Shown here in pieces: positions 10,880 through 32,000 of a stretch of 32,000 nucleotides of DNA. Made by a program: the position numbers and the translations under genes. Positions within the stretch are counted from its first letter, which is position 1. Every line of letters starts with the position of its first letter. Below the pieces are notes generated by a model. The model worked only from the letters and a program-made list of their open reading frames with translations. It was not told where the DNA came from and made no database searches. The DNA is from Candidatus Methylomirabilis oxygeniifera (lineage in GTDB: Bacteria > Methylomirabilota > Methylomirabilia > Methylomirabilales > Methylomirabilaceae): the NCBI GenBank assembly GCA_000091165.1, contig FP565575.1, forward strand, positions 840,001 through 872,000, written 5' to 3'.

Positions 10880-11140
10880 GCCCTGTTGACTTTCAGGGGG
10901 GCACTACACTATAGCTAAGCAGCAACAGAAAGGGGCCGGGAAAGCCGCCGCTCTCACCAGCCCCACATGTCAGCCTCTCAAGCAAAGATAGTATACCACG
11001 AAGTCGCCGCCGGATGAGTCCGTCCACGACTCAGCTCCAGACCGGGTCATGCCGACGTCGCTTATAGGAGGTACATTGTGGAACCTCACGCACCGGGTGA
11101 GGAAGCACCCCGCTCTCATCCAGCGTGATAGTTAGGAGTC

Positions 11141-11620
11141 TTACGATTCGCGAAGGTCAAAATGAGTATCAACACGTACCGGCGATAGGTTAGCTATCTG
11201 GATTTCTTCGTGACAAAGGCTACAACGAAGAAATGCTTCGCCGTATGGCTGTAATATAGACTTCTTGCGCTGATTCATGCATGCTGCACAAAGGTAATGG
11301 GGTGGCTCTGTGTTCTCCAAGCCCGGCGTCAAACAAAAGGCGTATCCTCCAAAAGTGAACTGTATCAATTGGTATCGCTGCGACTCACTTTCCCAATTGT
11401 TGAGTTCTCGCAATTGGTTTTCAAGTTCAGTTATGCGATTGGAAAGAAGAGATTGCTTTTCTTGGGAAGAGAGAGCTATCGCGTTAGCTTGCATGAGCTT
11501 GGCGTTTACCTCCGAGACTGCGGCTACGATTTCGTTATAATTGGAAAGGTGCTGCGCAGCCTTAAGAAGGGTCATAAGAGCCTGGAGACTTTCGGATGCA
11601 TGCAAGAGTTCGTTAATCAT
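11141..11620 (-). CDS. Hypothetical protein: N-terminal coiled coil + C-terminal CxxC...CxxC zinc-ribbon
   Basis: SD aggag lies 7 nt before the ATG. Heptad-like N-terminal half. HYLCAACMNQ...LRCSLCHEEI gives four Cys in zinc-ribbon spacing. Low-GC gene (about 45 % in sampled lines). No family recognised. Confidence 0.6.
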   Translation of the reverse strand: MINELLHASESLQALMTLLKAAQHLSNYNEIVAAVSEVNAKLMQANAIALSSQEKQSLLSNRITELENQLRELNNWESESQRYQLIQFTFGGYAFCLTPGLENTEPPHYLCAACMNQRKKSILQPYGEAFLRCSLCHEEIQIANLSPVRVDTHFDLRES

Positions 11621-11794
11621 AACTTGACTCCTATGTAATATCCAAGAGGCGCACCCCCTTGGAGTGAGAGGGTCTTGAACTCAACAATCATTTCTCGCGT
11701 ACCTGAGTGGAGGAGTCGTGCCAGTGCTTGCAAGCGCCGAGGCGTGCTGGTGTCGCGTACATCCTCGTCCAGACCGATGCTGCAGTGTGATCAG

Positions 11795-12907
11795 TCATTT
11801 TTTCCGATGAGACGTCATCCACTCACGTGCCAGATTCTGTGCCTCTCCTATTTGCTCTGGTGTCATGAGCCTCGCAACCTCGTCGCGGTCCCACCTGGAT
11901 TTCTGATCCTCTAACGAAGCTGCGATGTTGTACCATTTATGAGCGAGTACGAAGTCTTGAGGCGCGTGCCATCCCTTCTGGTATATAAAACCCAAGGTCC
12001 GAATTGCTGAAACGTAGCCCTGTTCGGCCGCCTTTTCCAAACAGCGGAGAGCTTCATCTATATCTTCTACAACTCCATCGCCACCTAGCCAACGCTCGCC
12101 AATCCAAAACTGGGCTTCTGCGTTGCCTTTTTCGGCAAGTGGCTTCTCTTCGAGGATTCGTTTCGCAACATAATCCCCGAGGTTGGCTGCCTTTCGATAA
12201 AGCTCCCTTGCCCTTTCTTCGTTCTTGGGCACTCCTTTTCCGTGCTCATACATGCTACCGAGCGCCACCAAAGCCCCGCGATTTCCCTTTTCGATTGCTC
12301 TCTCCAACCACTTGATTGCCACCAAGTAATTTTTGGCGACACCCTTCCCCTCTGCGTAAAGCCGACCTAAGCTCTCCATCCCAAGATGCTCACCATTATT
12401 GGCAGCTCGTTCAAACCATCTCCTTGCTTCGTAAAAGTCTTGGTCCACACCTTGACCGCCAATCTTTCCAACTCGATACATGGACCCTAACGTCCATTGT
12501 GCCATTGCGTGTTCTCGTTCTGCGGCCCTACGAAACCAACGTATCGCTTCTTGAGAATTCTGCCGGAACTCGTATAGAAGACCCAGCGAGTACTCCGACT
12601 CGCTTTTACCCTCTTCGGCAAAAGGGTGGAGATCGCGGATGCCGGTGTCGATAACAGACCTATAGTCTCCACCATGCTTGAGGGTTGCTCTTGCGAGTTC
12701 TAGGTATGATTGGCCAAGCCATTTCAAGACCTGGTTGTCGCCTACATGCGCCGAGGATCTAAACTCTCGAATTGCTGCCTCGTAATCGCCATTTCGGAAA
12801 GCGGACAGGCCCTGTAGAAAGTCAGTACTGGCGGGGCTGCTAATTGCAAGACCCGTCCACAAAGCGATACAGATGACGTTCAGACTGAGTAGTATCTTTT
12901 TCCGCAT
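11795..12907 (-). CDS. Secreted Sel1-like repeat (SLR/TPR-type) protein
   Basis: I start it at the internal Met MRKKILLSLNVICIALWTGLAISSPAS (signal-peptide-like). At least 7 repeats of the pattern A..W..KAA..G...A...LG..Y..G.GV..D...A..W. The track ORF extends to 13081 but runs into the IS end. Confidence 0.8.
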   Translation of the reverse strand: MRKKILLSLNVICIALWTGLAISSPASTDFLQGLSAFRNGDYEAAIREFRSSAHVGDNQVLKWLGQSYLELARATLKHGGDYRSVIDTGIRDLHPFAEEGKSESEYSLGLLYEFRQNSQEAIRWFRRAAEREHAMAQWTLGSMYRVGKIGGQGVDQDFYEARRWFERAANNGEHLGMESLGRLYAEGKGVAKNYLVAIKWLERAIEKGNRGALVALGSMYEHGKGVPKNEERARELYRKAANLGDYVAKRILEEKPLAEKGNAEAQFWIGERWLGGDGVVEDIDEALRCLEKAAEQGYVSAIRTLGFIYQKGWHAPQDFVLAHKWYNIAASLEDQKSRWDRDEVARLMTPEQIGEAQNLAREWMTSHRKK

Positions 12908-13127
12908 CAGGATACCTACGATCCGATTTTCTTCCGTTACTATAGGTACTATAGGCCACAGTCCATGGGCTGTGTCGGTCGCGCGGGGGCAACCTGATTT
13001 CAAGGGAGTTGCTCCGCGAACTCTTACGGCGATGCAGTGTTTTGATTGCCCAAGCCCTCTGTGCCAATAATAGTGAGACACCTGCCCCCCTGTAAATTAG
13101 AGTAGAGGGTAGGGAGGAACACACATC

Positions 13128-13631
13128 ATGAGAACTGGACCGATCACAGCTTCCCAGGGCAGCGCAGTCGCCCGCCGAGTCCCCGCACGTCCGTGGCCTG
13201 GCACCGCACGCCCCGCCGAGCCGCAGCGGGTGGTCCCAGCAGTCCCACCCGATCCCGAGGTGCCCACAAAGCCGGCACGACGACGGTTCACCGCAGCCGA
13301 GAAGCTCCGCATCTTGAGACTCGCCGATGCCTGCACGGTGTCGGGGAGCCTGGGGGCGCTCTTACGCAAGGAGGGGCTGTACTCGTCGAACCTCACCACC
13401 TGGCGCCGACAGCGGGACGCGGGCACCCTGTCCGCCCTCACGCCCCAGAAGCGGGGCCGCAAACCGTCGATCCGCAGTCCACTCGCCCAGGAGCATGAGC
13501 AGCTTCGTCGGGAGAACGAACGGCTGACGCGGCGGCTCCGACAGGCCGAGCTCATCATTGATGTTCAAAAAAAAGTTTCGCAGATCCTGGGGATCCCCCT
13601 GGCGACCTCCGAGGCAGGAGGCAGCGACTGA
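13128..13631 (+). CDS. IS3-family transposase OrfA
   Basis: RRFTAAEKLRILRLADA....G.LGALLRKEGLYSSNLTTWRRQRDAG (HTH) followed by a leucine-zipper-like EHEQLRRENERLTRRLRQAELIIDVQKK. Confidence 0.85.
   Translation: MRTGPITASQGSAVARRVPARPWPGTARPAEPQRVVPAVPPDPEVPTKPARRRFTAAEKLRILRLADACTVSGSLGALLRKEGLYSSNLTTWRRQRDAGTLSALTPQKRGRKPSIRSPLAQEHEQLRRENERLTRRLRQAELIIDVQKKVSQILGIPLATSEAGGSD
13568..13574 (+). other. A AAA AAA programmed -1 frameshift heptamer
   Basis: orfA codons read caa aaa aaa gtt. The -1 frame is open from 13571 through ATG 13631 (checked codon by codon). Confidence 0.7.
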
Positions 13632-14635
13632 TGGGCGCCGCGCAGACTCTGGCCTCCGAGGTAGGGATCAAACCGGCCTGCGACGCGTTCGGCACTTCTC
13701 GTGCCGGCTTCTACCGCGCCCAGACACGAACGCACGCTCCGATGGTGGAGCCAACGAGGCGCCCCAGCCCTCCACGGGCGCTGTCCGCCGATGAACGGCA
13801 GGGCGTGCTCGACCTGCTGCACGCCGACCGGTTTGCCGACCAGGCGCCCCATGAGGTCTATGCGACCCTCCTGGACGAAGGCGACTACCGCTGCTCCATC
13901 CGCACCATGTACCGACTCCTCAACGACCACACCGAGGTCAAAGAACGCCGGAACCAGTTGCGCCATCCGGTATATCAGAAACCGGAACTGCTGGCCACGG
14001 CCCCGAACCAGGTCTGGTCGTGGGACATTACGAAGCTCCTCAGCCCGGTGACGTGGTCCTACTTCTACCTCTATGTGATCCTGGACATTTTCAGCCGGTA
14101 CGTCGTCGGCTGGATGGTCGCCTTGGCGGAATCGGCCGCCTTGGCCGAACGACTCATCCGTGAGACCTGCGCCAAACAGGGGATCGACAAAGGGCAGCTC
14201 ACGATCCATGCGGACCGGGGCTCCTCCATGACCTCCAAGCCCGTGGCGTTCCTGTTGGCCGATCTGGGCGTCACCAAAACCCACAGCCGGCCGCATACGA
14301 GTGATGACAACCCGTACTCGGAAAGTCAGTTCAAGACCCTCAAGTACCGACCGGACTTCCCGGAACGGTTCGGGTGCATCGAGGATGCCCGGGGCTTCTG
14401 TCAGGACTTCTTCACCTGGTATAACACCGCGCATCGGCATACGGGCATTGGTCTCCTGACACCGGAGGTCCTGCACTACGGCTTGGCGGACGAGGTCCGC
14501 GCGGCTCGCGCCGCGATCCTGCAGGCCGCCTATGAAACCCATCCGGAGCGGTTCGTCCGCAAGGTGCCGGTTCCCCCGGCGCTTCCGGAGGCCGCGTGGA
14601 TTAACAAACCGAAGCCGATGGATACCGAGCGATGA
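13631..14635 (+). CDS. IS3-family transposase OrfB (DDE/rve integrase core)
   Basis: VWSWDITKL (D), IHADRGSSMTS (D) and DNPYSESQFKTLKY (E). The ATG overlaps the orfA TGA by 1 nt. Confidence 0.85.
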   Translation: MGAAQTLASEVGIKPACDAFGTSRAGFYRAQTRTHAPMVEPTRRPSPPRALSADERQGVLDLLHADRFADQAPHEVYATLLDEGDYRCSIRTMYRLLNDHTEVKERRNQLRHPVYQKPELLATAPNQVWSWDITKLLSPVTWSYFYLYVILDIFSRYVVGWMVALAESAALAERLIRETCAKQGIDKGQLTIHADRGSSMTSKPVAFLLADLGVTKTHSRPHTSDDNPYSESQFKTLKYRPDFPERFGCIEDARGFCQDFFTWYNTAHRHTGIGLLTPEVLHYGLADEVRAARAAILQAAYETHPERFVRKVPVPPALPEAAWINKPKPMDTER

Positions 14636-14758
14636 GGCGCGACACTAAATTCGGACACCAGGTGTCTCAAAATCATTGACACATTCCGAGCTTATCAACT
14701 GGTGTGAGCGGATCAACGTTCACGAGTAGCCCCGTCGGGCAGTAGGAGACATCCGACC

Positions 14759-19501: not shown

Positions 19502-19615
19502 CTCAATCCCCCTCTGCGAAAGGGGGAAGCGAGGGTACGCATCAGTAATACCCCCCTTTACGAAAGGGGGGCTACGGGGAGTTTGTCTGAGCTGCGCGCT
19601 GATCGCTGAACGCTA
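19502..19615 (+). repeat. Double-hairpin intergenic repeat, copy B
   Basis: Collinear with 5038-5158: ctcaatccccctctgcgaaaggggg ... ccccccttta-cgaaagggggg ... gtttgtctgagctg...gatcgctgaacgcta. Ends 32 nt before the rhodanese start. Confidence 0.7.
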
Positions 19616-19647
19616 TGTTCGACGGCGCCTGGGACAGGAGGGATGGG

Positions 19648-20535
19648 GTGAAACGAGTAATGATGGCAGCGGTAGCAGCGATGACGCTGCTCGCGGCGAC
19701 TCCGTGGTTGACCCTGGCTGCGGGTTACGGCAACCCACAGTTGCTTGTGAACACTCAGTGGTTGATCCAGCACCTGAATGATCGGGATCTGCGGATCATC
19801 GACATGCGCAACAGCCCGGACGAGTACGCGGCCGGACACATTCCCGGCGCGGTCCATCTGTCGGTCAATCAGGCCCGTGTGGCCTTGAAAGAGTCCGGTT
19901 TCGCCCTGCCTCCCGATTATGAGATCGAAGAGCGATTGGGGCAGCTCGGAATCACCAAAGATACTATGGTGGTTGTATATGACGATCAGGGAGGGCTCAA
20001 TGCCTCGCGCCTGTTCTTTACCCTTGAATATGCCGGTCACAAAAAGGTGGCGTTGTTGAACGGGGGCATCACGAAGTGGGTCGCTGAAGAGCGGCCTCTG
20101 TCGAAGACGGCGCCGCAGGTGAGTAAGACGGTCTACCAGGTCCAGGCTGAGACGCAGCGTGTCGTGGCGGCGAACTGGATTGTCGCCAACCTGGGGAAGC
20201 CGAATCTGGCCCTGGTGGACGCGCGATCGGCTGCTGAGTTTCGCGGCGAGGATCTGCGGGCCAAGCGGGGAGGCCACATCCCGGGGGCCGTCAACATTGA
20301 GTGGACGCACAACCTGGCCGCCGACAAGACATTCAAACCGGCGGAGGAACTCCTGGCGCTTTATAGCCAGGCGGGGGTCACGAAGGATAAGACGATCGTG
20401 AGCTACTGCCAGACGATGCATCGCGGCGCCGTGACCTACTTTATACTCCGGCTCCTGGGGTATTCGGATGTTCGCGGGTACGATCGCTCCTGGAGCGAGT
20501 GGGGTAACGACCTGTCGCTGCCCGCACAGTGGTGA
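19648..20535 (+). CDS. Exported tandem-rhodanese sulfurtransferase (thiosulfate/3-mercaptopyruvate sulfurtransferase family)
   Basis: GTG 19648 lies 6 nt after aggagg and gives VKRVMMAAVAAMTLLAATPWLTLAAG, which is signal-peptide-like. Two rhodanese domains. Active-site loop YCQTMHRGA in the C-terminal domain. Confidence 0.85.
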   Translation: MKRVMMAAVAAMTLLAATPWLTLAAGYGNPQLLVNTQWLIQHLNDRDLRIIDMRNSPDEYAAGHIPGAVHLSVNQARVALKESGFALPPDYEIEERLGQLGITKDTMVVVYDDQGGLNASRLFFTLEYAGHKKVALLNGGITKWVAEERPLSKTAPQVSKTVYQVQAETQRVVAANWIVANLGKPNLALVDARSAAEFRGEDLRAKRGGHIPGAVNIEWTHNLAADKTFKPAEELLALYSQAGVTKDKTIVSYCQTMHRGAVTYFILRLLGYSDVRGYDRSWSEWGNDLSLPAQW

Positions 20536-20637
20536 GCGGGTGGTGGAGATACAAGACGCTCTGTGGACGACGGTCGGACGTACGACATATCTTCGCGGTG
20601 ACAGGCTGCAACATTTTGCGATGGCGTGAGGAGAGAC

Positions 20638-21636
20638 ATGGGTGAGTTGCGGCGCGATCCGGTAAGAAATCGTTGGGTAGTGATCGATTCGGAGCGGCCG
20701 GATCGAGATGCCGGCTTGAAGGTGGAGGCGCAGCCGCCCCCACCGCTTTCCGGTCCATGCCCCCTATGTCCCGGTAATGAGTTGATGACTCCACCCGAGA
20801 TTATGGCGTTTGGCGAGCCCTCACGCCAGCGGAATCAGACCGGCTGGTGGGTTCGAGTTACCCCTGACCTGCAGCCTCTGTGCCGGATTGAGGGTGATTT
20901 CGATCGAAGGCCGGAGGGGCCCTTCGACGTGATGAATGCCGTAGGGGCCCATGAGATCGTCATAGAGAGTCCACAGCATCATTCAACGTGGGCGGAATTT
21001 TCGGAGCAGCAGTTGGAGCGGGTGCTGCGCGCCTACCGGCTACGCAGTCTGGATCTTCGCCTGGATGAGCGGTTCCGATCGCTGATCGTCGTCAAGAACC
21101 ATGCGGATGCGGCCGGCATCCTCAGCCATCCCCATTCCCACGTGCTGGCATTCCCGTTCGTCCCGTACGGGATTGAAGAGGAACTGCGCGGGTGTCGGGA
21201 GTTCTACGCGAGAAAGGAGCGCTGCGCCTTCTGCGACATCATACTCCATGAGCGGGTCTCACGCGTCAGACGGGTGGCGGAGACCGAGCACTTCGTGGTG
21301 GTGACGCCCTTCGCCTCCCGCTTTCCTTTCGAGACGTGGGTGCTGCCACTCCGTCACGCCTCCGATTTCGCGAAGATCGGCGAAAGAGAGTTGGTCGATC
21401 TGGCCGGCCTCATGAAGCGGATGATGCAGATGGTCGGGAAGGTGCTCGGCAACCAGTCCTGCACGATCGTCCTCCATAGCGCCCCATTCGACGAACCGCA
21501 CCGGCATGACTATCACTGGCATTTAGAGATCATCCCTAAAACTGCGCCTGTGGCGGCATTCGGGTGGGGCGCCAGACTTTTTGTGAACCCGATTCCGCCT
21601 GAGGAGGCGGCCGTCCTGATGGCGCCACAGATGTAA
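20638..21636 (+). CDS. GalT-like HIT-superfamily nucleotidyltransferase/phosphorylase (galactose-1-phosphate uridylyltransferase family)
   Basis: RRDPVRNRWVVI, Zn-knuckle CPLCPGNE, and nucleotidyl-histidine motif SHPHSHVLAF (HxHxH rather than the GalT HxHxQ). Duplicated half-barrel layout, 332 aa. Confidence 0.75.
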   Translation: MGELRRDPVRNRWVVIDSERPDRDAGLKVEAQPPPPLSGPCPLCPGNELMTPPEIMAFGEPSRQRNQTGWWVRVTPDLQPLCRIEGDFDRRPEGPFDVMNAVGAHEIVIESPQHHSTWAEFSEQQLERVLRAYRLRSLDLRLDERFRSLIVVKNHADAAGILSHPHSHVLAFPFVPYGIEEELRGCREFYARKERCAFCDIILHERVSRVRRVAETEHFVVVTPFASRFPFETWVLPLRHASDFAKIGERELVDLAGLMKRMMQMVGKVLGNQSCTIVLHSAPFDEPHRHDYHWHLEIIPKTAPVAAFGWGARLFVNPIPPEEAAVLMAPQM

Positions 21637-24726: not shown

Positions 24727-24756
24727 TTGACAGACGAAGTATGGGGGTTGTATAAG
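24727..24756 (+). promoter_or_regulatory. Candidate sigma-70 promoter of the sulfur operon (TTGACA-18 nt-TATAAG)
   Basis: A perfect -35 ttgaca (24727-24732), preceded by an A-tract (aaaaaaa), and a -10 tataag (24751-24756), 51 nt upstream of the Rrf2 start. Confidence 0.4.
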
Positions 24757-24776
24757 AAACACGACTAGCTCAATCG

Positions 24777-24798
24777 ACTTACTATGTTTTCGGTAAGT
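24777..24798 (+). promoter_or_regulatory. Inverted repeat acttac-N10-gtaagt in the 5' leader (possible Rrf2 operator)
   Basis: Perfect 6-bp arms at 24777-24782 and 24793-24798, between the putative -10 and the Rrf2 ATG. Confidence 0.3.
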
Positions 24799-24806
24799 AG
24801 TGAAAA

Positions 24807-25256
24807 ATGAAAGTATCTACAAAAGGTGATTACGCAACACGAGCCATGCAGGATCTGGCCCTCCACTATGAGCAAGGCCCGATTCAGATTGAGGATATCG
24901 CCAAGCGGCAACACCTCCCAGCCAGGTACCTGGAACAGATCCTGTTGAGCCTCAAGCGAGCCGGATTTCTGGAGAGTAAGCGCGGGGTGAGCGGCGGTTA
25001 CTACCTGGCTAAACATCCCCGTGAGATCACCGTTGGCGCCATTATCAGGGCGATGGAGGGACCGATTGTCCCGATTTTCTGCGTCGGAAGCGGCCAGCGG
25101 GAGATCTGCATTGAAGAGCCTCAGTGCTGTCTGCGGGACATCTGGGCCGAGGTGCGCGACGCAGTGAGCCACATTGTCGACCGTACCTCCTTGGAAGACC
25201 TCTGCGGACAGATCCGTGCGAGACGGGAGCGAGGAGAGGTCAGCTACCAAATCTAA
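24807..25256 (+). CDS. Rrf2-family transcriptional regulator (IscR/CymR/NsrR-like) with a C-terminal Cys cluster
   Basis: MKVSTKGDYATRAMQDLA...IAKRQHLPARYLEQILLSLKRAGFLESKRGVSGGYYLA is a winged HTH. Cys92, Cys101, Cys107 and Cys108 are candidate Fe-S ligands. Confidence 0.9.
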   Translation: MKVSTKGDYATRAMQDLALHYEQGPIQIEDIAKRQHLPARYLEQILLSLKRAGFLESKRGVSGGYYLAKHPREITVGAIIRAMEGPIVPIFCVGSGQREICIEEPQCCLRDIWAEVRDAVSHIVDRTSLEDLCGQIRARRERGEVSYQI

Positions 25257-25289
25257 CCTATCTGGGCTGCCTGGAGATCGGATACGTAG

Positions 25290-26204
25290 ATGCCACGGTT
25301 GGTTCGAAACGCTCTGGAACTGATTGGCGACACGCCGCTGGTTCAGTTGCAGCGGATACCGCATCCTGGATCGGCCAGGATTTTCGCCAAGCTGGAGTCG
25401 CTCAATCCGGGCGGAAGTGTGAAGGATCGGATCGCCCTGGCGATGATCGAGGATGCGGAGCGGAGTGGGCGCCTCAAGCCAGGCGATACGATTGTCGAGC
25501 CGACGTCAGGCAATACCGGGATCGGGCTGGCGATGGTCGCTGCCGTCAAGGGGTATCACCTGATTCTGACGATGCCGGAGGATATGAGCGCAGAACGGCG
25601 GAAGTTGGTCGGTCGGTTCGGGGCCGAAGTGATTCTGACCCCGGCCATTGAGGGGATGAGCGGCGCGGTCTATGCGGCAGAATCGCTGGTGGCGCAACAT
25701 CCCGGTTACTTCATGCCGCAACAGTTTCTGAATCCGGCCAACCCGGCCGTTCATCGTCGTACGACGGCACAAGAGATTCTGAAAGCGACTGATGGCCAGG
25801 TCGATGCTTTTGTGGCCGGTGTCGGGACCGGTGGAACGATTACCGGGGTGGGCGAGGTGCTCAAAAGGGAAGTTCCCGGCATTCAGGTGATCGCGGTAGA
25901 GCCGGCCAGATCTCCCGTCTTGCAGGGAGGGAGGGCCAGGCCGCATGGTATTCAGGGGATCGGCGCAAGCTTTGTCCCCGGCGTACTGAATATGGAAGTC
26001 GTTGATGAAGTGATCGCGGTTGAGGACGAGGACGCCTATCGGATGGCCTCTCGTCTGGGTAAAGAGGAGGGCCTGCTGGTGGGGATCTCAGCCGGGGCCA
26101 ACGTCTTTGCCTCAGTAGTGGTCGCCCAACGGCTTGACAGCAAAAAGGTTGTGGTCACAATCCTCCCCGACACGGGGGAGCGATACTTATCGGTTCCACT
26201 GTAA
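25290..26204 (+). CDS. cysK: Cysteine synthase A (O-acetylserine sulfhydrylase, PLP-dependent)
   Basis: GDTPLV, PLP lysine in NPGGSVKDR, TSGNTGIGLA, GVGTGGTITG, and a C-terminal PDTGERYLS. Confidence 0.9.
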   Translation: MPRLVRNALELIGDTPLVQLQRIPHPGSARIFAKLESLNPGGSVKDRIALAMIEDAERSGRLKPGDTIVEPTSGNTGIGLAMVAAVKGYHLILTMPEDMSAERRKLVGRFGAEVILTPAIEGMSGAVYAAESLVAQHPGYFMPQQFLNPANPAVHRRTTAQEILKATDGQVDAFVAGVGTGGTITGVGEVLKREVPGIQVIAVEPARSPVLQGGRARPHGIQGIGASFVPGVLNMEVVDEVIAVEDEDAYRMASRLGKEEGLLVGISAGANVFASVVVAQRLDSKKVVVTILPDTGERYLSVPL

Positions 26205-26224
26205 CCTGCAAGGGGGCAAAACGA

Positions 26225-27373
26225 ATGAATGCCTGCCGTGATATGAAGATCTCTCAACCGCGCACATCAGCGAACAGCGACCGCAGCGTGGCGATCCGTG
26301 TCTATATCCCGACTCCGTATCGGGGACTGACCGACAATCAGCCTCGTGTCGAAGGGCGAGGAGATGATCTGGTAGAACTTCTGGAGGATTTGGACCGACG
26401 CTTTCCAGGGATTCATGGGCGTGTGTTCGATCAGATGGGCGAATTCCACCGTCACCTCAATATCTATGTCAACAATGTGGCGGTAGAGGAGTTAGGCGGG
26501 AAGCGGACCGCACTCAAGGATGGCGACGAGGTGGCGTTGATCCCGGCTATGGCGGGAGGCGCCGGACCGTTCAATGAAGAGCAGATCCGCCGTTACAGTC
26601 GCCATATCATCCTTCCCGAGGTAGGCGGGAAGGGGCAGCGCAAACTGTTGAACAGTTCGGCGTTGCTCGTCGGCGCAGGCGGTCTGGGATCCCCTGCGGC
26701 TCTCTACCTGGCGGCTGCCGGTGTGGGTCGTCTCGGCATCATTGACGCCGATGTGGTGGACTTGAGCAACCTGCAGCGTCAGATTCTTCACCATGTGGAT
26801 GATGTGGGGCGGCCGAAGGTGATCTCAGCGGTCGAGGCGATCGGCCAGATCAATCCCGACGTAAAGGTGGAGCCGTTTCAAGCGGTCCTCTCCTCGGAGA
26901 ACGCGAAGGAGGTTATCAGTCAGTACGATCTGGTGGTCAATGGCTGCGATAATTTTCCGACGCGATACCTGACGAACGACGCCTGCGTGCTGCTCAAGAA
27001 ACCACTCGTGGACGGAAGTATCTTTAAGTTTGAAGGGCAGGTGACGGTCTTTCTGCCCGGTCAAGGCTGCTATCGCTGCCTATATCCGGCCCCTCCGCCA
27101 CCAGGGCTTGTGCCGAGCTGTCAGGAGGCCGGTGTACTGGGTGTGCTGTGCGGCATTGTCGGCAGCCTGCAGGCGATTGAGGCAATCAAGCTGCTGCTCG
27201 GGATCGGCGACTCGCTGGCCGGGCGGTTGCTTTTCTTCGATTCGTTGGGGATGGAGTTCAGGCAGGTCAAGGTGCGGCGCGACTCCGACTGTCCGGTGTG
27301 CGGAGACGATCCGACCATCACCGATCTGATCGATTATCACGAATTCTGTGGAGTGCCGGGCGGTGGTCACTGA
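26225..27373 (+). CDS. Fusion protein: CysO/MoaD/ThiS-like ubiquitin-fold sulfur carrier (about aa 22-112, ending ...IPAMAGG) + MoeB/ThiF-type adenylyltransferase (E1-like, no rhodanese domain)
   Basis: Carrier part VAIRVYIPTPYRG...HLNIYVNNVAVEELGGKRTALKDGDEVALIPAMAGG, with G111-G112 at 26555-26560. It continues without a stop or Met into AGPFNEEQIRRYSRHIILPEVG..GQ..L..S.LLVGAGGLGSPAALYLAAAGVG.L.IID.D.V..SNLQRQ. Also CQEAGVLG and the Zn pairs CYRC and CPVC. The protein ends 25 aa after CPVC. Confidence 0.85.
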   Translation: MNACRDMKISQPRTSANSDRSVAIRVYIPTPYRGLTDNQPRVEGRGDDLVELLEDLDRRFPGIHGRVFDQMGEFHRHLNIYVNNVAVEELGGKRTALKDGDEVALIPAMAGGAGPFNEEQIRRYSRHIILPEVGGKGQRKLLNSSALLVGAGGLGSPAALYLAAAGVGRLGIIDADVVDLSNLQRQILHHVDDVGRPKVISAVEAIGQINPDVKVEPFQAVLSSENAKEVISQYDLVVNGCDNFPTRYLTNDACVLLKKPLVDGSIFKFEGQVTVFLPGQGCYRCLYPAPPPPGLVPSCQEAGVLGVLCGIVGSLQAIEAIKLLLGIGDSLAGRLLFFDSLGMEFRQVKVRRDSDCPVCGDDPTITDLIDYHEFCGVPGGGH

Positions 27374-27466
27374 GGTTGCGAACGGCGCAGCCATGGTCCG
27401 GATGATGGGCCTTGGTCTCGTTGTAGGGGTGCCTTCGGATATGCCCTGCAACGCGGTCGCTTCTGC

Positions 27467-28408
27467 ATGAACTCGACGTTTCGCGACATCCTGTTGGCGC
27501 GGGATTTCACTCTGCTGCGGGCCTACCTGCTGGCGCTGTTGATTCAGATGGTCGGGGTGAGAGCGATGGCGACATTCGGTCTGTTCGGATTAGGCATCAC
27601 GCCCTTTTTCTGGATGGCGACACTGTTCGGCGGATTCGTCTTTGGCCTCGGTATGGCGTTGTCCGGCGGGTGCGCGAGCGGGAGCACCTATCGGTCAGGT
27701 GAGGGGATGGTAGGGTCCATTATCGCGCTGCTCGGCTTTGTGTTCGGGATAACCATGACGAATGACGGTGTGTTGGAGCCGGTACAGGCGACCTTTCGAG
27801 GTTGGGTCGTTGAGATCGACGGGCAGCCTGCGACGCTGGACCGCCTCCTGGGCGTGAGCCCGTGGATCCTGGTTGTGACGTGTGTGACGGTCGGCGGATG
27901 GTGGCTTGTGAAAAGCCCGTCCGGCGGCTATCAGAGAGGATGGAGCTGGGTAAGGAGCGGCTTGACCATCGGCCTGATCGCGACGGCTGCCTGGCCGATC
28001 TCCGCCCTGACCGGACGGGAGTACGGTCTCTCGGTCACTGAACCGATTCGAACCATCTCGGGATTCCTGTTTACGGGTGAGACCGACCGGCTTACCTGGG
28101 GAAGTTTTATGTGGGTCGGGCTCATCGCGGGCGCTCACGTGGCGGCGCGGTCGCATGGAGAGTTTGCCTGGCGTGCTCCCGGTGCGCAACGTCTGCTTCA
28201 GGCGCTCGGGGGTGGTCTGCTGATGGGTATGGGTGCGGGGATTGCGGGTGGCTGTAACATCGGTCACGCACTGACCGGTGTTCCGCTCTTCGGGTTGAGC
28301 AGCATGACGGCGACCCTCAGTATTATGGTGGGTGTCTGGGCTGGAGTCTACCTATTGTTCGGTAGTGTGGCATTTGAACGCGGAGCGCGAAGCGTCCAGC
28401 GGGCGTAG
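27467..28408 (+). CDS. YeeE/YedE (TsuA-type) thiosulfate/sulfur-compound permease; as called it lacks the first TM helix, and the conserved N-terminus lies upstream in two frames (27393-27466)
   Basis: GGCASGSTYR and GGCNIGHALTG motifs, polytopic. Upstream in the same frame reads GAFGYALQRGRFC with no start codon. The 0 frame reads MVRMMGLGLVVGV. See finding. Confidence 0.8.
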   Translation: MNSTFRDILLARDFTLLRAYLLALLIQMVGVRAMATFGLFGLGITPFFWMATLFGGFVFGLGMALSGGCASGSTYRSGEGMVGSIIALLGFVFGITMTNDGVLEPVQATFRGWVVEIDGQPATLDRLLGVSPWILVVTCVTVGGWWLVKSPSGGYQRGWSWVRSGLTIGLIATAAWPISALTGREYGLSVTEPIRTISGFLFTGETDRLTWGSFMWVGLIAGAHVAARSHGEFAWRAPGAQRLLQALGGGLLMGMGAGIAGGCNIGHALTGVPLFGLSSMTATLSIMVGVWAGVYLLFGSVAFERGARSVQRA

Positions 28409-28437
28409 CGTCTCCCGATCGGAGAGTCGATCGGAGA

Positions 28438-28680
28438 ATGGTGGAGAAGGCGATGGCGAAGTACTCACTTGATGTGACCGGAGAGATCTGTCCGTATCCG
28501 TTGATGTTGACCAAGCAGAAGATGGGGGCGCTCGCGTCCGGCGATCAGTTGGCAGTGATGGTCGATTACGCAAAATCAGTCGAAGACATTCCCCGGTGGG
28601 CCAAAGAAGAGGGGTACTCGGTTCTTGCCGTCTTGGAAGTGGGGAGAACGCAGTGGGAAATCGTTCTGGAAAAGGCATAA
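28438..28680 (+). CDS. TusA/SirA-like sulfurtransferase (TsuB-like partner of YeeE)
   Basis: LDVTGEICPYPLMLTKQKM carries the CPxP active-site motif. About 76-80 aa (alternative ATG at 28453). Confidence 0.85.
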   Translation: MVEKAMAKYSLDVTGEICPYPLMLTKQKMGALASGDQLAVMVDYAKSVEDIPRWAKEEGYSVLAVLEVGRTQWEIVLEKA

Positions 28681-28701
28681 GCATTCGTGGAGGAGGTCAG
28701 C

Positions 28702-28950
28702 ATGATGAGTGGGGCGCCTGAGCAGACGGTTGAGTCCCTCGATCTGAAGGGCGAGGTGTGCCCCTACACGTTTGTGAAGACCAAATTGGCCTTGGAGGAG
28801 CTACAGAGTGGTCAGGTGCTGAGGGTGATTGTGGACAACCCCGGCTCTGCGGCAAACGTTCCCAGGAGCCTACACAGTGAAGGGCATGTGGTTGTCGATG
28901 TAACGCAACTGAATGACACCGACTGGGCGATTACAGTGAAAAAGGCCTGA
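28702..28950 (+). CDS. Second TusA/SirA-like sulfurtransferase
   Basis: LDLKGEVCPYTFVKTKLALEEL. ATG 28702 follows SD ggaggagg (the track opens at GTG 28687). Confidence 0.85.
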   Translation: MMSGAPEQTVESLDLKGEVCPYTFVKTKLALEELQSGQVLRVIVDNPGSAANVPRSLHSEGHVVVDVTQLNDTDWAITVKKA

Positions 28951-28987
28951 CCTGCCTGGGTAGAGTGGGCCGGGGACGAGACAGCCG

Positions 28988-29016
28988 ACCTGCCCGTGCG
29001 GTGCACGCAGGCAGGT
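28988..29016 (+). promoter_or_regulatory. GC-rich stem-loop just 5' of the cysM-like SD, with an alternative upstream pairing partner
   Basis: acctgcccgtgc (28988-28999) pairs with gcac(gc)aggcaggt (29003-29016) over 12 bp with a 2-nt bulge. The right arm caggcaggt is also perfectly complementary to acctgcctg at 28950-28958. Confidence 0.35.
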
Positions 29017-29029
29017 AAAGAGGACATGG

Positions 29030-29965
29030 ATGAAATCAGAAGATATTCTTGATGCAATCGGGAACACACCGTTGGTGGAGCTGCCGCGGATGAGTCCCAA
29101 GAAAGGGGTTCGGATCTTTGCCAAACTGGAGGGGACCAACCCGACCGGCAGCCTGAAGGATCGAATCGTAAAATACATGATCGAGCAGGCCGAGCGGAGC
29201 GGCGAGCTGACGAAGGACAAGACGATCCTGGAGCCGACAAGCGGCAACACCGGTATCGCCTTGGCCATGATCGGACGGAGGAAGGGGTATAAGGTCAAGG
29301 TGGTGATTCCGGAAAACGCCACCCCGGAGCGACGCCAGCTTCTGGAGATCTTCGGCGCCGAGTTGATCTATTCTGATGGGACAAAAGGCAGTAACGGCGC
29401 CATTGAGTTAGCTCAAAAGCTGGTGACGGAGGATCCGACCCTCTATATGCCCTTTCAGTACGGCAATCCGGCCAACCCGATGGCTCACTACGAAACAACC
29501 GGAAAGGAGATCCTGAACGATCTCCCGGAGGTCGATGTCTTTGTGGCCGGCCTTGGGACCGGCGGAACGCTGATGGGCGTCGGTCGACGACTGAAAGAAC
29601 ATGACCCCAAAACCAAGGTGATTGCGGTAGAGCCCAATCCGGGCGATCTGGTGCAGGGACTTCGGAGTCTGGATGAGGGTTTTATCCCCCCGATTCTCGA
29701 CACGAGCCTCCTGGACGGCAAGATCATGGTTGATTCCCGCTGCGCGTTTGCCGCTACCAGAGATCTGACCAACAAGGAAGGGATCTTTGCGGGCGTCTCC
29801 TCCGGCGCTGTTGTGCATGTGGCGATCAGGACGGCACACCGTATGGAGAAGGGCAACATCGTAGTGATCCTGTGCGATACCGGATGGAAGTATATCAGTC
29901 TGGGTGTCTGGCACAAGGAGTTTCCGGAGTTGGGCGAGAACATGTACAGTCATCTCTGGTGGTGA
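29030..29965 (+). CDS. cysM: CysM-type cysteine synthase (Mycobacterium CysM-like, carrier-protein-thiocarboxylate-dependent class)
   Basis: GNTPLVELPRMSP, PLP lysine in NPTGSLKDR, EPTSGNTGIALA, VIPENATPERRQLLEIFGAELI and GLGTGGTLMG. Immediately followed by a JAMM gene, as in mec-cysO-cysM loci. Confidence 0.85.
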   Translation: MKSEDILDAIGNTPLVELPRMSPKKGVRIFAKLEGTNPTGSLKDRIVKYMIEQAERSGELTKDKTILEPTSGNTGIALAMIGRRKGYKVKVVIPENATPERRQLLEIFGAELIYSDGTKGSNGAIELAQKLVTEDPTLYMPFQYGNPANPMAHYETTGKEILNDLPEVDVFVAGLGTGGTLMGVGRRLKEHDPKTKVIAVEPNPGDLVQGLRSLDEGFIPPILDTSLLDGKIMVDSRCAFAATRDLTNKEGIFAGVSSGAVVHVAIRTAHRMEKGNIVVILCDTGWKYISLGVWHKEFPELGENMYSHLWW

Positions 29966-29966
29966 G

Positions 29967-30455
29967 ATGGTCCTCACCGAACGGGAGCTGAACGAGATCT
30001 TTGCGCACGCCGAAGAGGCGTTTCCCGAGGAGGCCTGTGGTATCGTGATAGGCAAACCGGGCGATCCGAATACGAACCTTGTTCGCAGATGCGGAAATCT
30101 GGCGAATCAGTATCACCTGGACGATCCGACTCGGAATCCGAGAGATGCAAAGACCGCCTACATCATGGACCCGAAGGACCTGCTGCGGGTTCAAAGCGAA
30201 GCGGATGCGAAGGGCTTCGAGTTCGTTGTGCTCTATCATTCACACCCGGATCATGAGGCCTACTTCTCCGAGACCGATCGAGAGTTGGCGCTGTTCGACG
30301 GTGAACCAGTGTGGTCTCGGCTGCGCTATCTCGTGGTATCGGTGAAAAATGGAAAGGTCTCGTATTTCAGGGTATTCGGTTGGGACACCATCGAAAAGCA
30401 GTTTACGGCGGAGCCGTCCGCTGTCTTTGAACGAAAAGACCAGCCTCTCGTGTAG
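29967..30455 (+). CDS. mec: JAMM/MPN+ zinc metallopeptidase (Mec+/CysO-cysteine peptidase-like)
   Basis: EEACGIV (catalytic Glu) and HSHPDHEAYFSETD, which is an exact H-x-H-x7-S-x2-D JAMM motif. The ATG is 1 nt after the cysM stop. Confidence 0.85.
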   Translation: MVLTERELNEIFAHAEEAFPEEACGIVIGKPGDPNTNLVRRCGNLANQYHLDDPTRNPRDAKTAYIMDPKDLLRVQSEADAKGFEFVVLYHSHPDHEAYFSETDRELALFDGEPVWSRLRYLVVSVKNGKVSYFRVFGWDTIEKQFTAEPSAVFERKDQPLV

Positions 30456-30538
30456 AGCTTCTTGAGGGAATGATACGTGATATGCGGGGCGTTCGAAACT
30501 GAGCCGGATGGTCGCGAGATGAATAGGAAGCCAAGGGC

Positions 30539-31480
30539 ATGATGAATCTTGACGCCGGGCAGATTACGCTCATCGCGATCACGCTCTTTGCGGCTGCCGT
30601 CAATGGGGCGCTGGGATACGGGTTTTCATCGCTGACCGTCCCGGTTGCTCTCATCTTTTATTCCAACCGGATCTTAAATCCCGCCCTGGTGTTGGTAGAG
30701 GTGGCGCTCAACAGCTACGTACTGCTTGTCAATCGACGGAGCATCCCGAAGATCTGGAAGAGGGTGCTGCCGATCGTGTGCGGTCTCATTCCTGGCGTCA
30801 TCGCGGGGAGCTATGCCCTCTCGATGGCAAGTCCGGAATGGCTGAAGCTGATCACGTATCTCATCGTGCTGCCGCTAATCCTGCTGCAGGCGGCAGGGGT
30901 AAGACGGCCGATCCGGTCTGAGCGGCTCATTGGCGTGCCGTTTGGCGCCGGTGTCGGCGTACTCTATTCGACAACCACCATCTCTGGTCCTCCGTTGGCG
31001 CTCCTTTTTAACAATCAGGGCTTTGTCAAAGGCGAGTTTCGAGCCGCCCTTGGCATGATCAGAATGGTCGAATCGACCGTCACAGCGACTGCGTATTATT
31101 ACCTTGGAGTGTACACTGCGGGGAGCGTAGGACTCCTGTGGTCGATCGTGCCGAGCGTGGCGATAGGGATCCCGCTGGGGGCCTACGTCATCAGCCAGAT
31201 GAATGCTGAAACATTTCGCAGAATCTGTATGAGCTTTGACGCCTGGGTAGTGGGCTTCGGCTTATCCAAGGTGCTGATCGATCTGAAATTGACGACCAGC
31301 CCGAGTGGTTACATTGTCTGGCTGGCCGTTATCGTGACTGATCTGACGTTACTCTACGGCTTCTTTACGAGGCAGCCTGAGATCCCGGTGGCCGCCTTGG
31401 CGGTCGATGTCCCTGACGGTAGTCCCAGGCTCATACCGCAGAAAACTCCGGCTGTGACCCCGGATGATCTGGCTACGTAA
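30539..31480 (+). CDS. TauE/SafE (DUF81) family anion permease, putative sulfite/organosulfonate exporter
   Basis: Polytopic. N-terminal AAAVNGALGYGFSSLTVPVALIF and a mid-protein GAGVGVLYSTTTISGPPLALLF, which resemble TauE internal repeats. Confidence 0.7.
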   Translation: MMNLDAGQITLIAITLFAAAVNGALGYGFSSLTVPVALIFYSNRILNPALVLVEVALNSYVLLVNRRSIPKIWKRVLPIVCGLIPGVIAGSYALSMASPEWLKLITYLIVLPLILLQAAGVRRPIRSERLIGVPFGAGVGVLYSTTTISGPPLALLFNNQGFVKGEFRAALGMIRMVESTVTATAYYYLGVYTAGSVGLLWSIVPSVAIGIPLGAYVISQMNAETFRRICMSFDAWVVGFGLSKVLIDLKLTTSPSGYIVWLAVIVTDLTLLYGFFTRQPEIPVAALAVDVPDGSPRLIPQKTPAVTPDDLAT

Positions 31481-31528
31481 GTCTATTTCTAGGCCGTTGG
31501 CGGGCGATGAATGATGGAGAGGGTAATC

Positions 31529-32000
31529 ATGAATAATGCGAGCGAACCGGTGGACGCTGAGCAGCCGGCAAACGTTTTAACTCCGACTAATGGACGGATC
31601 AATCAAGAAAAGGCGCAGTCCGCGAACGGGTCGTCCTGGGCCAGTGAGGAGGACATCGACACCTTCGATCAGTTTGTCCGGAGATTTTGGAAGGGGGAGA
31701 TCTCCCCGGACGAATTCAAGCGGTTCCGCCTGCAGAACGGGATCTATGGACAGCGGCAGGAAGGGGAGCAGATGTTTCGGATCAAGATCCCGTGGGGCGG
31801 CCTCAGTGCGGCTCAATTGGAGTTACTCGCCGAGTTGGCGGCGAAGGCTCCGAATGGGGTAGCCCACGTCACGACCCGCCAGAACATCCAGCTTCACTTC
31901 ATCAAGCTCGAGCAGGTAACAGGACTGATGAGGAGCCTGGCCTCGGTCGGCCTGACGACCAGAGAGGCCTGCGGCAACACCGTTCGCAACGTCACGGTCG
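31529..32000 (+). CDS. Ferredoxin-type sulfite (nitrite/sulfite) reductase, N-terminal 157 codons; continues beyond the window
   Basis: SD ggagagg. FKRFRLQNGIYGQRQEGEQMFRIKIPWGGLSAAQL, HVTTRQNIQLHFI and TTREACGNTVRNVT are NIR_SIR signatures. Absent from the ORF track because there is no stop inside the window. Confidence 0.85.
   Translation, partial: MNNASEPVDAEQPANVLTPTNGRINQEKAQSANGSSWASEEDIDTFDQFVRRFWKGEISPDEFKRFRLQNGIYGQRQEGEQMFRIKIPWGGLSAAQLELLAELAAKAPNGVAHVTTRQNIQLHFIKLEQVTGLMRSLASVGLTTREACGNTVRNVTV

Follow-up and report, generated by a model that had tools for sequence, protein, structure and literature searches.

We identified, at positions 24727-32000 of a 32,000-nt stretch of a Candidatus Methylomirabilis (NC10) genome (hereafter the window), the 5' two-thirds of what appears to be a complete sulfate/thiosulfate-to-cysteine operon. 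Ten co-directional genes occupy this interval on the + strand, and the domains attributed to them in a preliminary description of the DNA were all confirmed with Pfam and NCBIfam. Comparison with related assemblies predicts the full gene order Rrf2, cysK, cysO-E1, yeeE, tusA-1, tusA-2, cysM, JAMM, tauE, sir, beta-propeller, adenosine 5'-phosphosulfate (APS) reductase, and ATP sulfurylase. The encoded enzymes suggest that cysteine can be made by two routes, one via CysK and the other via a carrier/E1/CysM/JAMM module of the Mycobacterium tuberculosis type. We consider it probable that sulfate and thiosulfate are converted to cysteine by these CysK and CysO-type routes in parallel, by the mechanism proposed below. 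The features of the interval are as follows.

24727-24806, + strand: promoter and candidate Rrf2 operator (conserved hexamers, element, palindrome)
24807-25256, + strand: Rrf2 regulator, 149 aa (Pfam Rrf2, E 5e-40)
25290-26204, + strand: CysK (O-acetylserine sulfhydrylase A), 304 aa (TIGR01139)
26225-27373, + strand: ThiS/MoaD-ThiF fusion, a CysO-like carrier plus E1 (Pfam ThiS 27-112, ThiF 124-358)
27363-28408, + strand: yeeE/tsuA-like permease, longest intact open reading frame (ORF) 27467-28408 (Pfam Sulf_transp, E 1e-74)
28438-28680, + strand: TusA-1 (Pfam TusA, E 1.8e-21; GEICPYP, active-site Cys18)
28687-28950, + strand: TusA-2 (Pfam TusA, E 9.4e-23; GEVCPYTFVK(S/T)KLALEE, Cys25)
28945-29029, + strand: structured segment between tusA-2 and cysM (fold and conservation)
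29030-29965, + strand: CysM, mycobacterial O-phosphoserine sulfhydrylase type (PALP), 311 aa
29967-30455, + strand: JAMM/MPN+ metalloprotease, Mec+-like, 162 aa (Pfam Prok-JAB, E 1.7e-23)
30539-31480, + strand: TauE/SafE (TSUP) membrane protein, 313 aa (Pfam TauE, 83 bits versus a gathering score of 32.6)
31511-32000, + strand: gene for a NirA-type siroheme sulfite reductase, 5' end only, truncated where the window stops (Pfam NIR_SIR_ferr)

Operon extent and inputs

Homologues of the fusion protein carry the names NC10 or Candidatus Methylomirabilis. Four independent assemblies (L089-L092; L numbers denote the compared loci) match the window at 100% over 6.4-15.8 kb, save one indel, and in these, as in the 91%-identical relative L001, the operon runs on beyond the window end. 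The sulfite reductase gene is followed by genes for a beta-propeller protein, a thioredoxin-dependent APS reductase (CysH; TIGR02055, 271 bits versus a cut-off of 235), and an ATP sulfurylase (Sat; 532 bits versus a cut-off of 387), and then by a convergent rhodanese gene. Because APS reductase and ATP sulfurylase follow past the window end, sulfate is a predicted pathway input, and would be converted to sulfide by ATP sulfurylase, APS reductase, and sulfite reductase. The preliminary description had presented the interval as a self-contained operon fed by thiosulfate and sulfite. Neither part of that statement stands, as the operon continues with the remainder of the sulfite reductase, the beta-propeller, and the genes for sulfate activation and APS reduction. 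Its assignment of the constituent modules holds, that is, a YeeE-TusA pair, mycobacterial-type CysO/CysM/JAMM, a classical CysK, a sulfite reductase, and an E1 lacking a rhodanese domain. Three features described below are additions to that account: the internal Gly-Gly of the fused carrier, the yeeE frameshift, and the C-terminal tail of Rrf2.

The intergenic spacers are, in gene order, 33, 20, 93, 29, 6, 79, 1, 83, and 30 nt. The 93-nt spacer between E1 and yeeE exists because yeeE is frameshifted in the window, as described below. A consensus scan found 8 terminator-like sites, not an excess over the 5.8 expected in shuffled sequence, and none of them inside an intergenic gap; the terminator/promoter scan says nothing for or against separate transcription units. 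Scanning of the leader and gaps with Rfam returned no riboswitch or known RNA, only a sub-threshold match to mir-583. This match lies within cysK (26058-26111; 30 bits versus a gathering score of 80) and was taken as chance.

Two cysteine synthases

The first cysteine synthase exceeds the cut-off of the TIGR01139 cysK equivalog (446.2 versus 350.95 bits) and has the typical PHGIQGIG loop. The second shares 46% identity with it. Its best solved relative is M. tuberculosis CysM (3dwg_A/3dki_A; 302 bits, E 3.8e-89, next match 247 bits), and the alignment is full length, C-terminal tail included. The window CysM keeps an arginine aligned with R220 of the M. tuberculosis enzyme (LRSLDEG versus LRNMDEG), which we take to be the O-phosphoserine-binding residue.

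The spacer that precedes cysM (28945-29029) has a predicted minimum free energy of -38.4 kcal/mol (z = -2.86) and is closed by a 9-bp inverted repeat, ACCTGCCTG...CAGGCAGGT. Its sequence is conserved in relatives of 86-90% identity, largely so in L001 and L083, and it contains neither a T-run nor a match to an Rfam family. Some related loci have a free carrier gene in place of this spacer.

The carrier-E1 fusion and the JAMM protease

The fusion protein comprises only ThiS and ThiF domains; by Pfam it lacks a rhodanese domain and ends about 20 residues past the second CxxC. Carrier residues 24-112 align with residues 3-93 of CysO (3dwg_C), up to the terminal GG (E 1.1e-14), and the E1 part aligns with ThiF (1zfn) and MoeB (1jw9). 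The carrier ends at G111-G112 (nt 26555-26560); in the fusion this Gly-Gly is internal, with AGPFNEEQ and then the E1 domain after it. This architecture is widely shared: 119 of the 120 listed homologues have ThiS plus ThiF, the exception being a 274-aa partial sequence, and most begin at the equivalent of GTG 26288. Alignments of 9 and of 42 homologues show no variation at the Gly-Gly, at either CxxC pair, or at Cys299. Among 80 genome loci, PAxxGG occurs at the junction in every fused homologue, with a following linker of 4 to 18 residues; free carriers of related loci frequently bear 1-3 additional residues past the GG. An AlphaFold2 model shows two confident domains with a predicted local distance difference test score below 50 at the junction, which hints that the linker may be exposed; the model is of a monomer, and docking in trans is beyond its reach.

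Since adenylation needs a free carboxylate and the Gly-Gly is internal, the fusion must be cut after Gly112 if the carrier is to function. The candidate protease is presumably the adjacent JAMM, whose gene begins 1 nt past the cysM stop. Its motif, E...HSHPDHEAYFSETD (HxHx7Sx2D), is intact at aa 91, and its nearest structure is 2kcq. A precedent for such cleavage is a Deinococcus JAMM reported to cut a MoaD-MoaE fusion (PMC8832034).

Several related loci combine these components in other ways. On the metagenome contig L002 (6267-21098), a fusion 67% identical to that of the window is preceded by genes for Rrf2, CysK, a small Fe-S sulfite reductase, TusA, DUF2061, and 3'-phosphoadenosine 5'-phosphosulfate (PAPS) reductase, and followed by DsrE/DsrE/DsrH, TusA, Hdr-like genes, and a lipoate-binding-protein gene. 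This arrangement appears to link the carrier-E1 fusion to a sulfur-oxidation-type relay. Loci of Zetaproteobacteria (L053, L064, L066, and L078-L081) encode a free carrier, CysK, an unfused E1, a small sulfite reductase, a TusA (GVACPMNFVK), and CysH. Although these carriers have a single residue (R, C, K, or I) past the GG, JAMM is missing within 10 kb. Stand-alone rhodanese genes flank the operon on both sides, at 19615-20535 in the window (about 4 kb upstream) and convergently at 20454-21107 (- strand) in L089. Either of these rhodaneses, rather than TusA, could provide persulfide to the rhodanese-less E1.

The yeeE lesion and two types of TusA

The window yeeE bears a private 1-nt deletion at 27431/27432 (within 27426-27438). 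The four otherwise identical assemblies have one more G, reading GGGGTGGCC versus GGGGTGCC in the window. In those assemblies the intact gene encodes 348 aa from a start at the window equivalent of 27363 or 27392 and, depending on the start, either overlaps the E1 stop or lies 18 nt past it. The intact protein aligns with S. thermophila YeeE (6leo) from residue 2 and contains three Cys motifs (RGRxC, GGCASG, and GGCNIGH). As read in the window, the N-terminal motif GAFGYALQRGRFC and the first Cys motif fall upstream of the sole in-frame start, ATG 27467, and the expected N-terminus, MVRMMGLGLVVG, is encoded in a different frame. There is no second lesion across the 1 kb of yeeE, and the deletion is likely an artifact of sequencing or assembly, or else a mutation that arose very recently. 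The truncation of the ORF lowers its scores against the NCBIfam TsuA models, which are below the cut-offs (212.7 versus 400 and 176.5 versus 645).

TusA-1, encoded 29 nt past yeeE, has TsuB/YeeD as its best NCBIfam match (64.8 bits versus a cut-off of 147.5), and proteins of its type are encoded directly after YeeE in all seven YeeE-containing loci. Proteins like TusA-2, with near-identical motifs, occur in carrier/E1/CysM/JAMM loci that lack YeeE, in Chloroflexota, Nitrospinota, Thermodesulfobacteriota, and others. The two window proteins share 41% identity. They had been described as paralogues, but by their neighbors they are two orthologue types that are not interchangeable, TusA-1 going with YeeE and TusA-2 with carrier/E1/CysM/JAMM. 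The difference in partners argues for a division of labor, in which TusA-1 would serve the permease and TusA-2 would be the sulfur donor to the rhodanese-less E1. In published work on the YeeE system, YeeD proved essential to the function of YeeE and acquired a persulfide from thiosulfate (PMC11073785).

Conservation of the neighborhood

We compared 56 loci with an E1 homologue, all 12 kb or longer and taken from the genomes of different species, and divided them according to whether a CysO-like carrier, fused or free, is encoded nearby. The counts, not corrected for kinship, are as follows.

Cysteine synthase nearby: carrier present 30/32, carrier absent 1/24
TusA nearby: carrier present 23/32, carrier absent 5/24
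JAMM nearby: carrier present 19/32, carrier absent 2/24
Rrf2 nearby: carrier present 15/32, carrier absent 0/24
Sulfite reductase nearby: carrier present 13/32, carrier absent 3/24
YeeE nearby: carrier present 5/32, carrier absent 0/24

Conservation across genomes, which the preliminary description had proposed to examine, is thus seen as an enrichment of carrier loci for cysteine synthase, TusA, JAMM, and Rrf2. We found the core order Rrf2-CysK-(carrier-E1)-CysM-JAMM repeatedly, in Methylomirabilota, Chloroflexota/Dehalococcoidia, Bacillota, Nitrospinota, and Thermodesulfobacteriota. Only a minority of loci elaborate it with a YeeE-TusA insert.

Promoter and Rrf2 regulator

Upstream of the Rrf2 gene we identified a -35 hexamer, TTGACA, at 24727-24732 (the position from which the preliminary description had begun the operon) and, 18 nt downstream, a -10 hexamer, TATAAG, at 24751-24756. 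This promoter was not listed by the consensus scan because its -10 ends in G where the scan demands T. Just downstream of the -10 is a conserved element, ACGACTAGCTCAATCGACTTACT (24761-24783), overlapped by the palindrome ACTTAC-N10-GTAAGT (24777-24798). L083, L001, L004, and L014 retain both the pattern CTTGACA-N17/18-TATAA and, downstream of it, (A/G)CTCAATCGAC, amid flanks that have diverged. The element and palindrome together are a candidate operator. Inspection of the promoter for an IscR or CymR box revealed nothing convincing.

The regulator contains five cysteines, rather than the four counted previously. Three of these (C92, C101, and C107) are conserved in 14-15 of 20 orthologues adjoining cysK and have the usual spacing of Rrf2 cluster ligands; all three are lost in one Chloroflexota subclade. 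The C-terminus, ...GEVSYQI (window 25236-25256), ends in a [Y/F]-x-I pattern that is present in 20 of the 20 cysK-adjoining orthologues. The nearest solved structures are 4cic and Bacillus subtilis CymR (2y75), and the score against NCBIfam CymR is 118.9 bits, under the cut-off of 195. As aligned, CymR of B. subtilis and Staphylococcus aureus lacks cysteines where the triad lies. A peptide from the C-terminus of S. aureus CymR, ...YMFYI, enters the active site of CysK, to which it binds with a dissociation constant of 25 nM (bioRxiv 10.1101/2024.09.19.614015). Given the Y-x-I tail, the retained Cys triad, and a score below the CymR cut-off, the window protein looks like a hybrid regulator with a CymR-style CysK-docking tail and an Fe-S-type triad. 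The analogy drawn earlier with the CymR-CysK pairing, with cysteines retained, is borne out: as in Bacillus and Staphylococcus, where such a regulator governs a cysteine regulon, an Rrf2 regulator with an aromatic-x-Ile C-terminus is encoded upstream of and adjoining cysK. Unlike those regulators, it falls under the CymR equivalog cut-off and keeps the three-Cys triad.

TauE protein and sulfite reductase

The TauE protein has no NCBIfam match, and its homologues among the fetched loci occur only in close Methylomirabilis relatives, so neighborhood conservation cannot assign its function. A member of the TSUP/TauE family, CysZ, is encoded in the sulfate-reduction operon of Corynebacterium glutamicum, a bacterium whose growth on sulfate and sulfite depends on it (PMC1266029, PMC5840216). 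By this precedent, a role for the window protein as an importer (a CysZ-like sulfate/sulfite permease) is at least as likely as one in sulfite export. The C. glutamicum operon, fpr2-cysIXHDNYZ, also resembles that of the window in placing the TSUP/TauE protein with a NirA-type sulfite reductase and CysH, whereas the thiocarboxylate module is absent there.

The window covers the N-terminal 163 residues of the NIR_SIR reductase. In the identical assemblies the full protein is 609 aa, with the gene call at an ATG equivalent to window 31530, and in L089 the full-length protein has two NIR_SIR_ferr and two NIR_SIR domains. The beta-propeller gene that lies between sulfite reductase and APS reductase (L089 17199-18179, L001 17140-18120) encodes a 326-aa protein with a hydrophobic N-terminal segment and a YNCE-like domain, an odd passenger for a cytoplasmic assimilation operon. 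L001 also encodes a paralogue of this protein upstream of the operon.

Proposed mechanism

We predict that sulfate or sulfite is imported by the TauE-family protein, after the example of C. glutamicum CysZ, and that thiosulfate is taken up by YeeE and TusA-1, as by TsuA/TsuB, leaving a persulfide on TusA-1. The carrier would be made as an N-terminal fusion to E1, and a cut by JAMM after Gly112 would expose the Gly-Gly carboxylate for adenylation by E1. TusA-2, in place of a rhodanese domain, would then deliver sulfane sulfur to the carrier adenylate, with the invariant Cys299 of E1 as a possible intermediary; the donor could instead be free sulfide. CysM may join the resulting thiocarboxylate to O-phosphoserine, after which JAMM would free cysteine. 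Rrf2 is predicted to repress the promoter at 24727 and to sense cysteine/O-acetylserine status by docking its Y-x-I tail in the CysK active site, like CymR. A second input, redox or Fe-S status, is probably read by its Cys triad in most lineages.

A more elaborate version of this mechanism, which we find rather doubtful, has both sulfurs of thiosulfate used, the sulfane half never becoming free sulfide, under control of the hybrid Rrf2. Sulfane sulfur would pass from YeeE to TusA-1, TusA-2, the JAMM-released CysO adenylate on E1, and CysM, ending in cysteine. The sulfonate half would be released as sulfite, reduced by the co-encoded sulfite reductase, and fed to CysK. Rrf2 would read O-acetylserine/cysteine via its tail in CysK and Fe-S or redox status via a cluster bound by the triad.

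Some observations weigh against the sulfate/thiosulfate-to-cysteine mechanism as proposed. Every transfer step is inferred, and the matches of YeeE, TusA, JAMM, E1, and Rrf2 are all under the NCBIfam equivalog cut-offs. The sulfite reductase, although NirA-family-like, likewise reaches no equivalog cut-off, and a nitrite reductase is formally conceivable. The genomes behind the association counts are related, and the counts lack phylogenetic independence. Among the approximately 15 fused loci with sufficient flanking sequence, JAMM is absent within 10 kb in 3 (L002, L006, and L020), so a cut by an adjacent JAMM is not obligatory everywhere. Finally, as read in the window, the thiosulfate branch would be defective because yeeE is frameshifted, and the fused carrier domain may have another role; these two points are taken up with the alternatives that they favor.

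The fused ubiquitin-like (Ubl) domain could be a docking or regulatory part of E1 rather than a carrier, with free sulfide, from sulfite reductase or from TusA-mediated thiosulfate breakdown, going to CysK, and with CysM, as in Escherichia coli, combining thiosulfate and O-acetylserine into S-sulfocysteine. Such a role was proposed by Iyer et al. for Ubl domains fused to ThiF, with which a free ThiS usually co-occurs (PMC1779556), and an additional free carrier is indeed encoded beside cysM in L006, L008, L010, and L014. The chemistry also has precedents, as YeeD by itself can free sulfide from thiosulfate and E. coli CysM accepts thiosulfate (PMC11073785), which would suit the adjoining YeeE. 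However, a free carrier gene is missing from the window and from its close relatives, and the fused domain, which retains the invariant PAxxGG terminus, aligns with CysO over its whole length. The window CysM is nearest to the CysO-dependent O-phosphoserine enzyme, with the R220 equivalent kept, and the JAMM gene directly adjoins cysM. We therefore regard a non-carrier role as unlikely.

That the carrier-E1, TusA, and JAMM belong to another pathway altogether (molybdopterin, thiamine, or 2-thiouridine synthesis, or SAMP/TtuB-like conjugation), and lie in the operon for co-regulated sulfur supply, is very improbable. The idea draws on matches that are themselves under the cut-offs: those of E1 to MoeB PRK08762 (413 bits) and to the SAMP-activating UbaA (354 bits), those of the carrier to SAMP1 and archaeal MoaD, and that of JAMM to desampylase, its sole NCBIfam match. 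In addition, mycobacterial MoeZR works in both molybdenum cofactor (Moco) and cysteine synthesis (PMC3227635). Against this, a cysteine synthase is encoded near the carrier in 30 of 32 loci, while E1 homologues without a carrier, probably Moco MoeB proteins, are seldom or never near a cysteine synthase (1/24), JAMM (2/24), or Rrf2 (0/24). MoaE, ThiG, and TtuA/NcsA genes are absent from the operon, and the best solved relative of the carrier is CysO. A further alternative accepts the frameshift at face value: yeeE would be a genuine pseudogene, the thiosulfate branch would be inoperative in this organism, and both TusA proteins would serve only the sulfide/thiocarboxylate route. The deletion does leave the only long yeeE ORF without its start and first Cys motif, but we rate this quite unlikely because four independent assemblies, identical over 6.4-15.8 kb, carry the intact gene. 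No second lesion occurs in 1 kb of yeeE, and the loss of a single base is in keeping with a mistake in sequencing or assembly or with a mutation of very recent date.

Relation to known systems

A close known counterpart of the predicted CysO-type route is the CysO-CysM-Mec+-MoeZR pathway of M. tuberculosis, with which the window shares a carrier matching CysO, a CysM whose closest solved relative is the M. tuberculosis enzyme, a JAMM gene beside cysM, and a MoeB/MoeZ-family E1. In the window, unlike M. tuberculosis, the carrier, its Gly-Gly being internal, is joined to the N-terminus of E1; a rhodanese domain such as MoeZR uses is missing, and TusA proteins are present instead; and the module lies inside a full sulfate-assimilation operon with CysK, YeeE, and Rrf2. 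The host also differs, being a member of the Methylomirabilota rather than an actinobacterium.

A system in Wolinella succinogenes, HcyS-HcyD-HcyF-MetY, reportedly described by Krishnamoorthy and Begley in 2011, is said to resemble that of the window in having an E1 without rhodanese and a clustered sulfite reductase as sulfide source. Its product is reportedly homocysteine, made via MetY, and its carrier HcyS is said to be free-standing, with one extra Ala past the Gly-Gly that is trimmed by a JAMM. YeeE, CysK, and Rrf2 are reportedly lacking there.

Operons combining ThiS/MoaD, JAB, a rhodanese-less E1, SirA (equivalent to TusA), sulfite reductase, PAPS reductase, and ATP sulfurylase were recognized by Iyer, Burroughs, and Aravind in 2006, who predicted that SirA takes the role of the rhodanese (PMC1779556). 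Ubl-ThiF fusions were noted in the same work, one adjoining a cysteine synthase in Pelobacter (PMC1779556). The operon described here shares with their types 4c/4e the carrier, JAB, rhodanese-less E1, SirA/TusA, sulfite reductase, (P)APS reductase, and ATP sulfurylase. The window differs from these types in its two cysteine synthases, YeeE, TSUP permease, second TusA, and Rrf2; type 4e has O-acetylhomoserine sulfhydrylase and ABC transporters, and a carrier-E1 fusion in a cysteine context was known there for Pelobacter only.

TusA persulfide is also the described donor for the MoaD thiocarboxylate on MoeB in E. coli (PMC5372717). The IscS-TusA-MoaD/MoeB relay resembles that proposed here: the TusA persulfide serves a carrier of the beta-grasp fold, adenylated on an E1 of the MoeB type that lacks rhodanese. 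In E. coli, however, the sulfur comes from cysteine via IscS and goes to molybdopterin, whereas here inorganic sulfur would go toward cysteine, and TusA-2 of the window is a distinct orthologue type (CPYTFVK). Because of the 2006 prediction (PMC1779556) and the known E. coli transfer from TusA to MoaD (PMC5372717), the relay from TusA to the carrier, put forward earlier as a connection not known to be demonstrated, is not new as an idea. The narrower point, that transfer to CysO is undemonstrated, stands so far as our literature search extends: covering few subscription journals, it found no experiment on a CysO-E1 fusion or on TusA-to-CysO transfer. The YeeE/YeeD (TsuA/TsuB) system is matched by the alignment of intact YeeE with S. 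thermophila YeeE and by the CPxP TusA gene directly after it. The window pair differs in scoring under the TsuA/TsuB cut-offs, in lying within a thiocarboxylate cysteine operon beside a second TusA, and in being frameshifted.

Overall, the operon is an expected kind of sulfur-assimilation cluster with novel elaborations. The CysO/CysM route is usually deemed actinobacterial, and a review states that it occurs only in actinobacteria (PMC9547175); here it is predicted for Methylomirabilota, Chloroflexota, Bacillota, Nitrospinota, and further phyla, its partners being conserved. The locus raises three testable ideas: (i) that one JAMM both matures the carrier-E1 precursor and frees the product, (ii) that a dedicated TusA type supplants the rhodanese domain as donor to the CysO adenylate, and (iii) that an Rrf2 regulator unites a CymR-style CysK-docking tail with Fe-S-type cysteines. 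These bear on the cysteine supply of the nitrite-dependent methane oxidizer Methylomirabilis, which may thereby avoid free sulfide.

Elsewhere in the window, the region 11000-14650 has a low GC content, 0.51 versus about 0.60. It contains a Sel1-repeat gene (11795-13081, - strand) beside an integrase-core (rve) transposase gene (13631-14635) and is probably a mobile or acquired segment.

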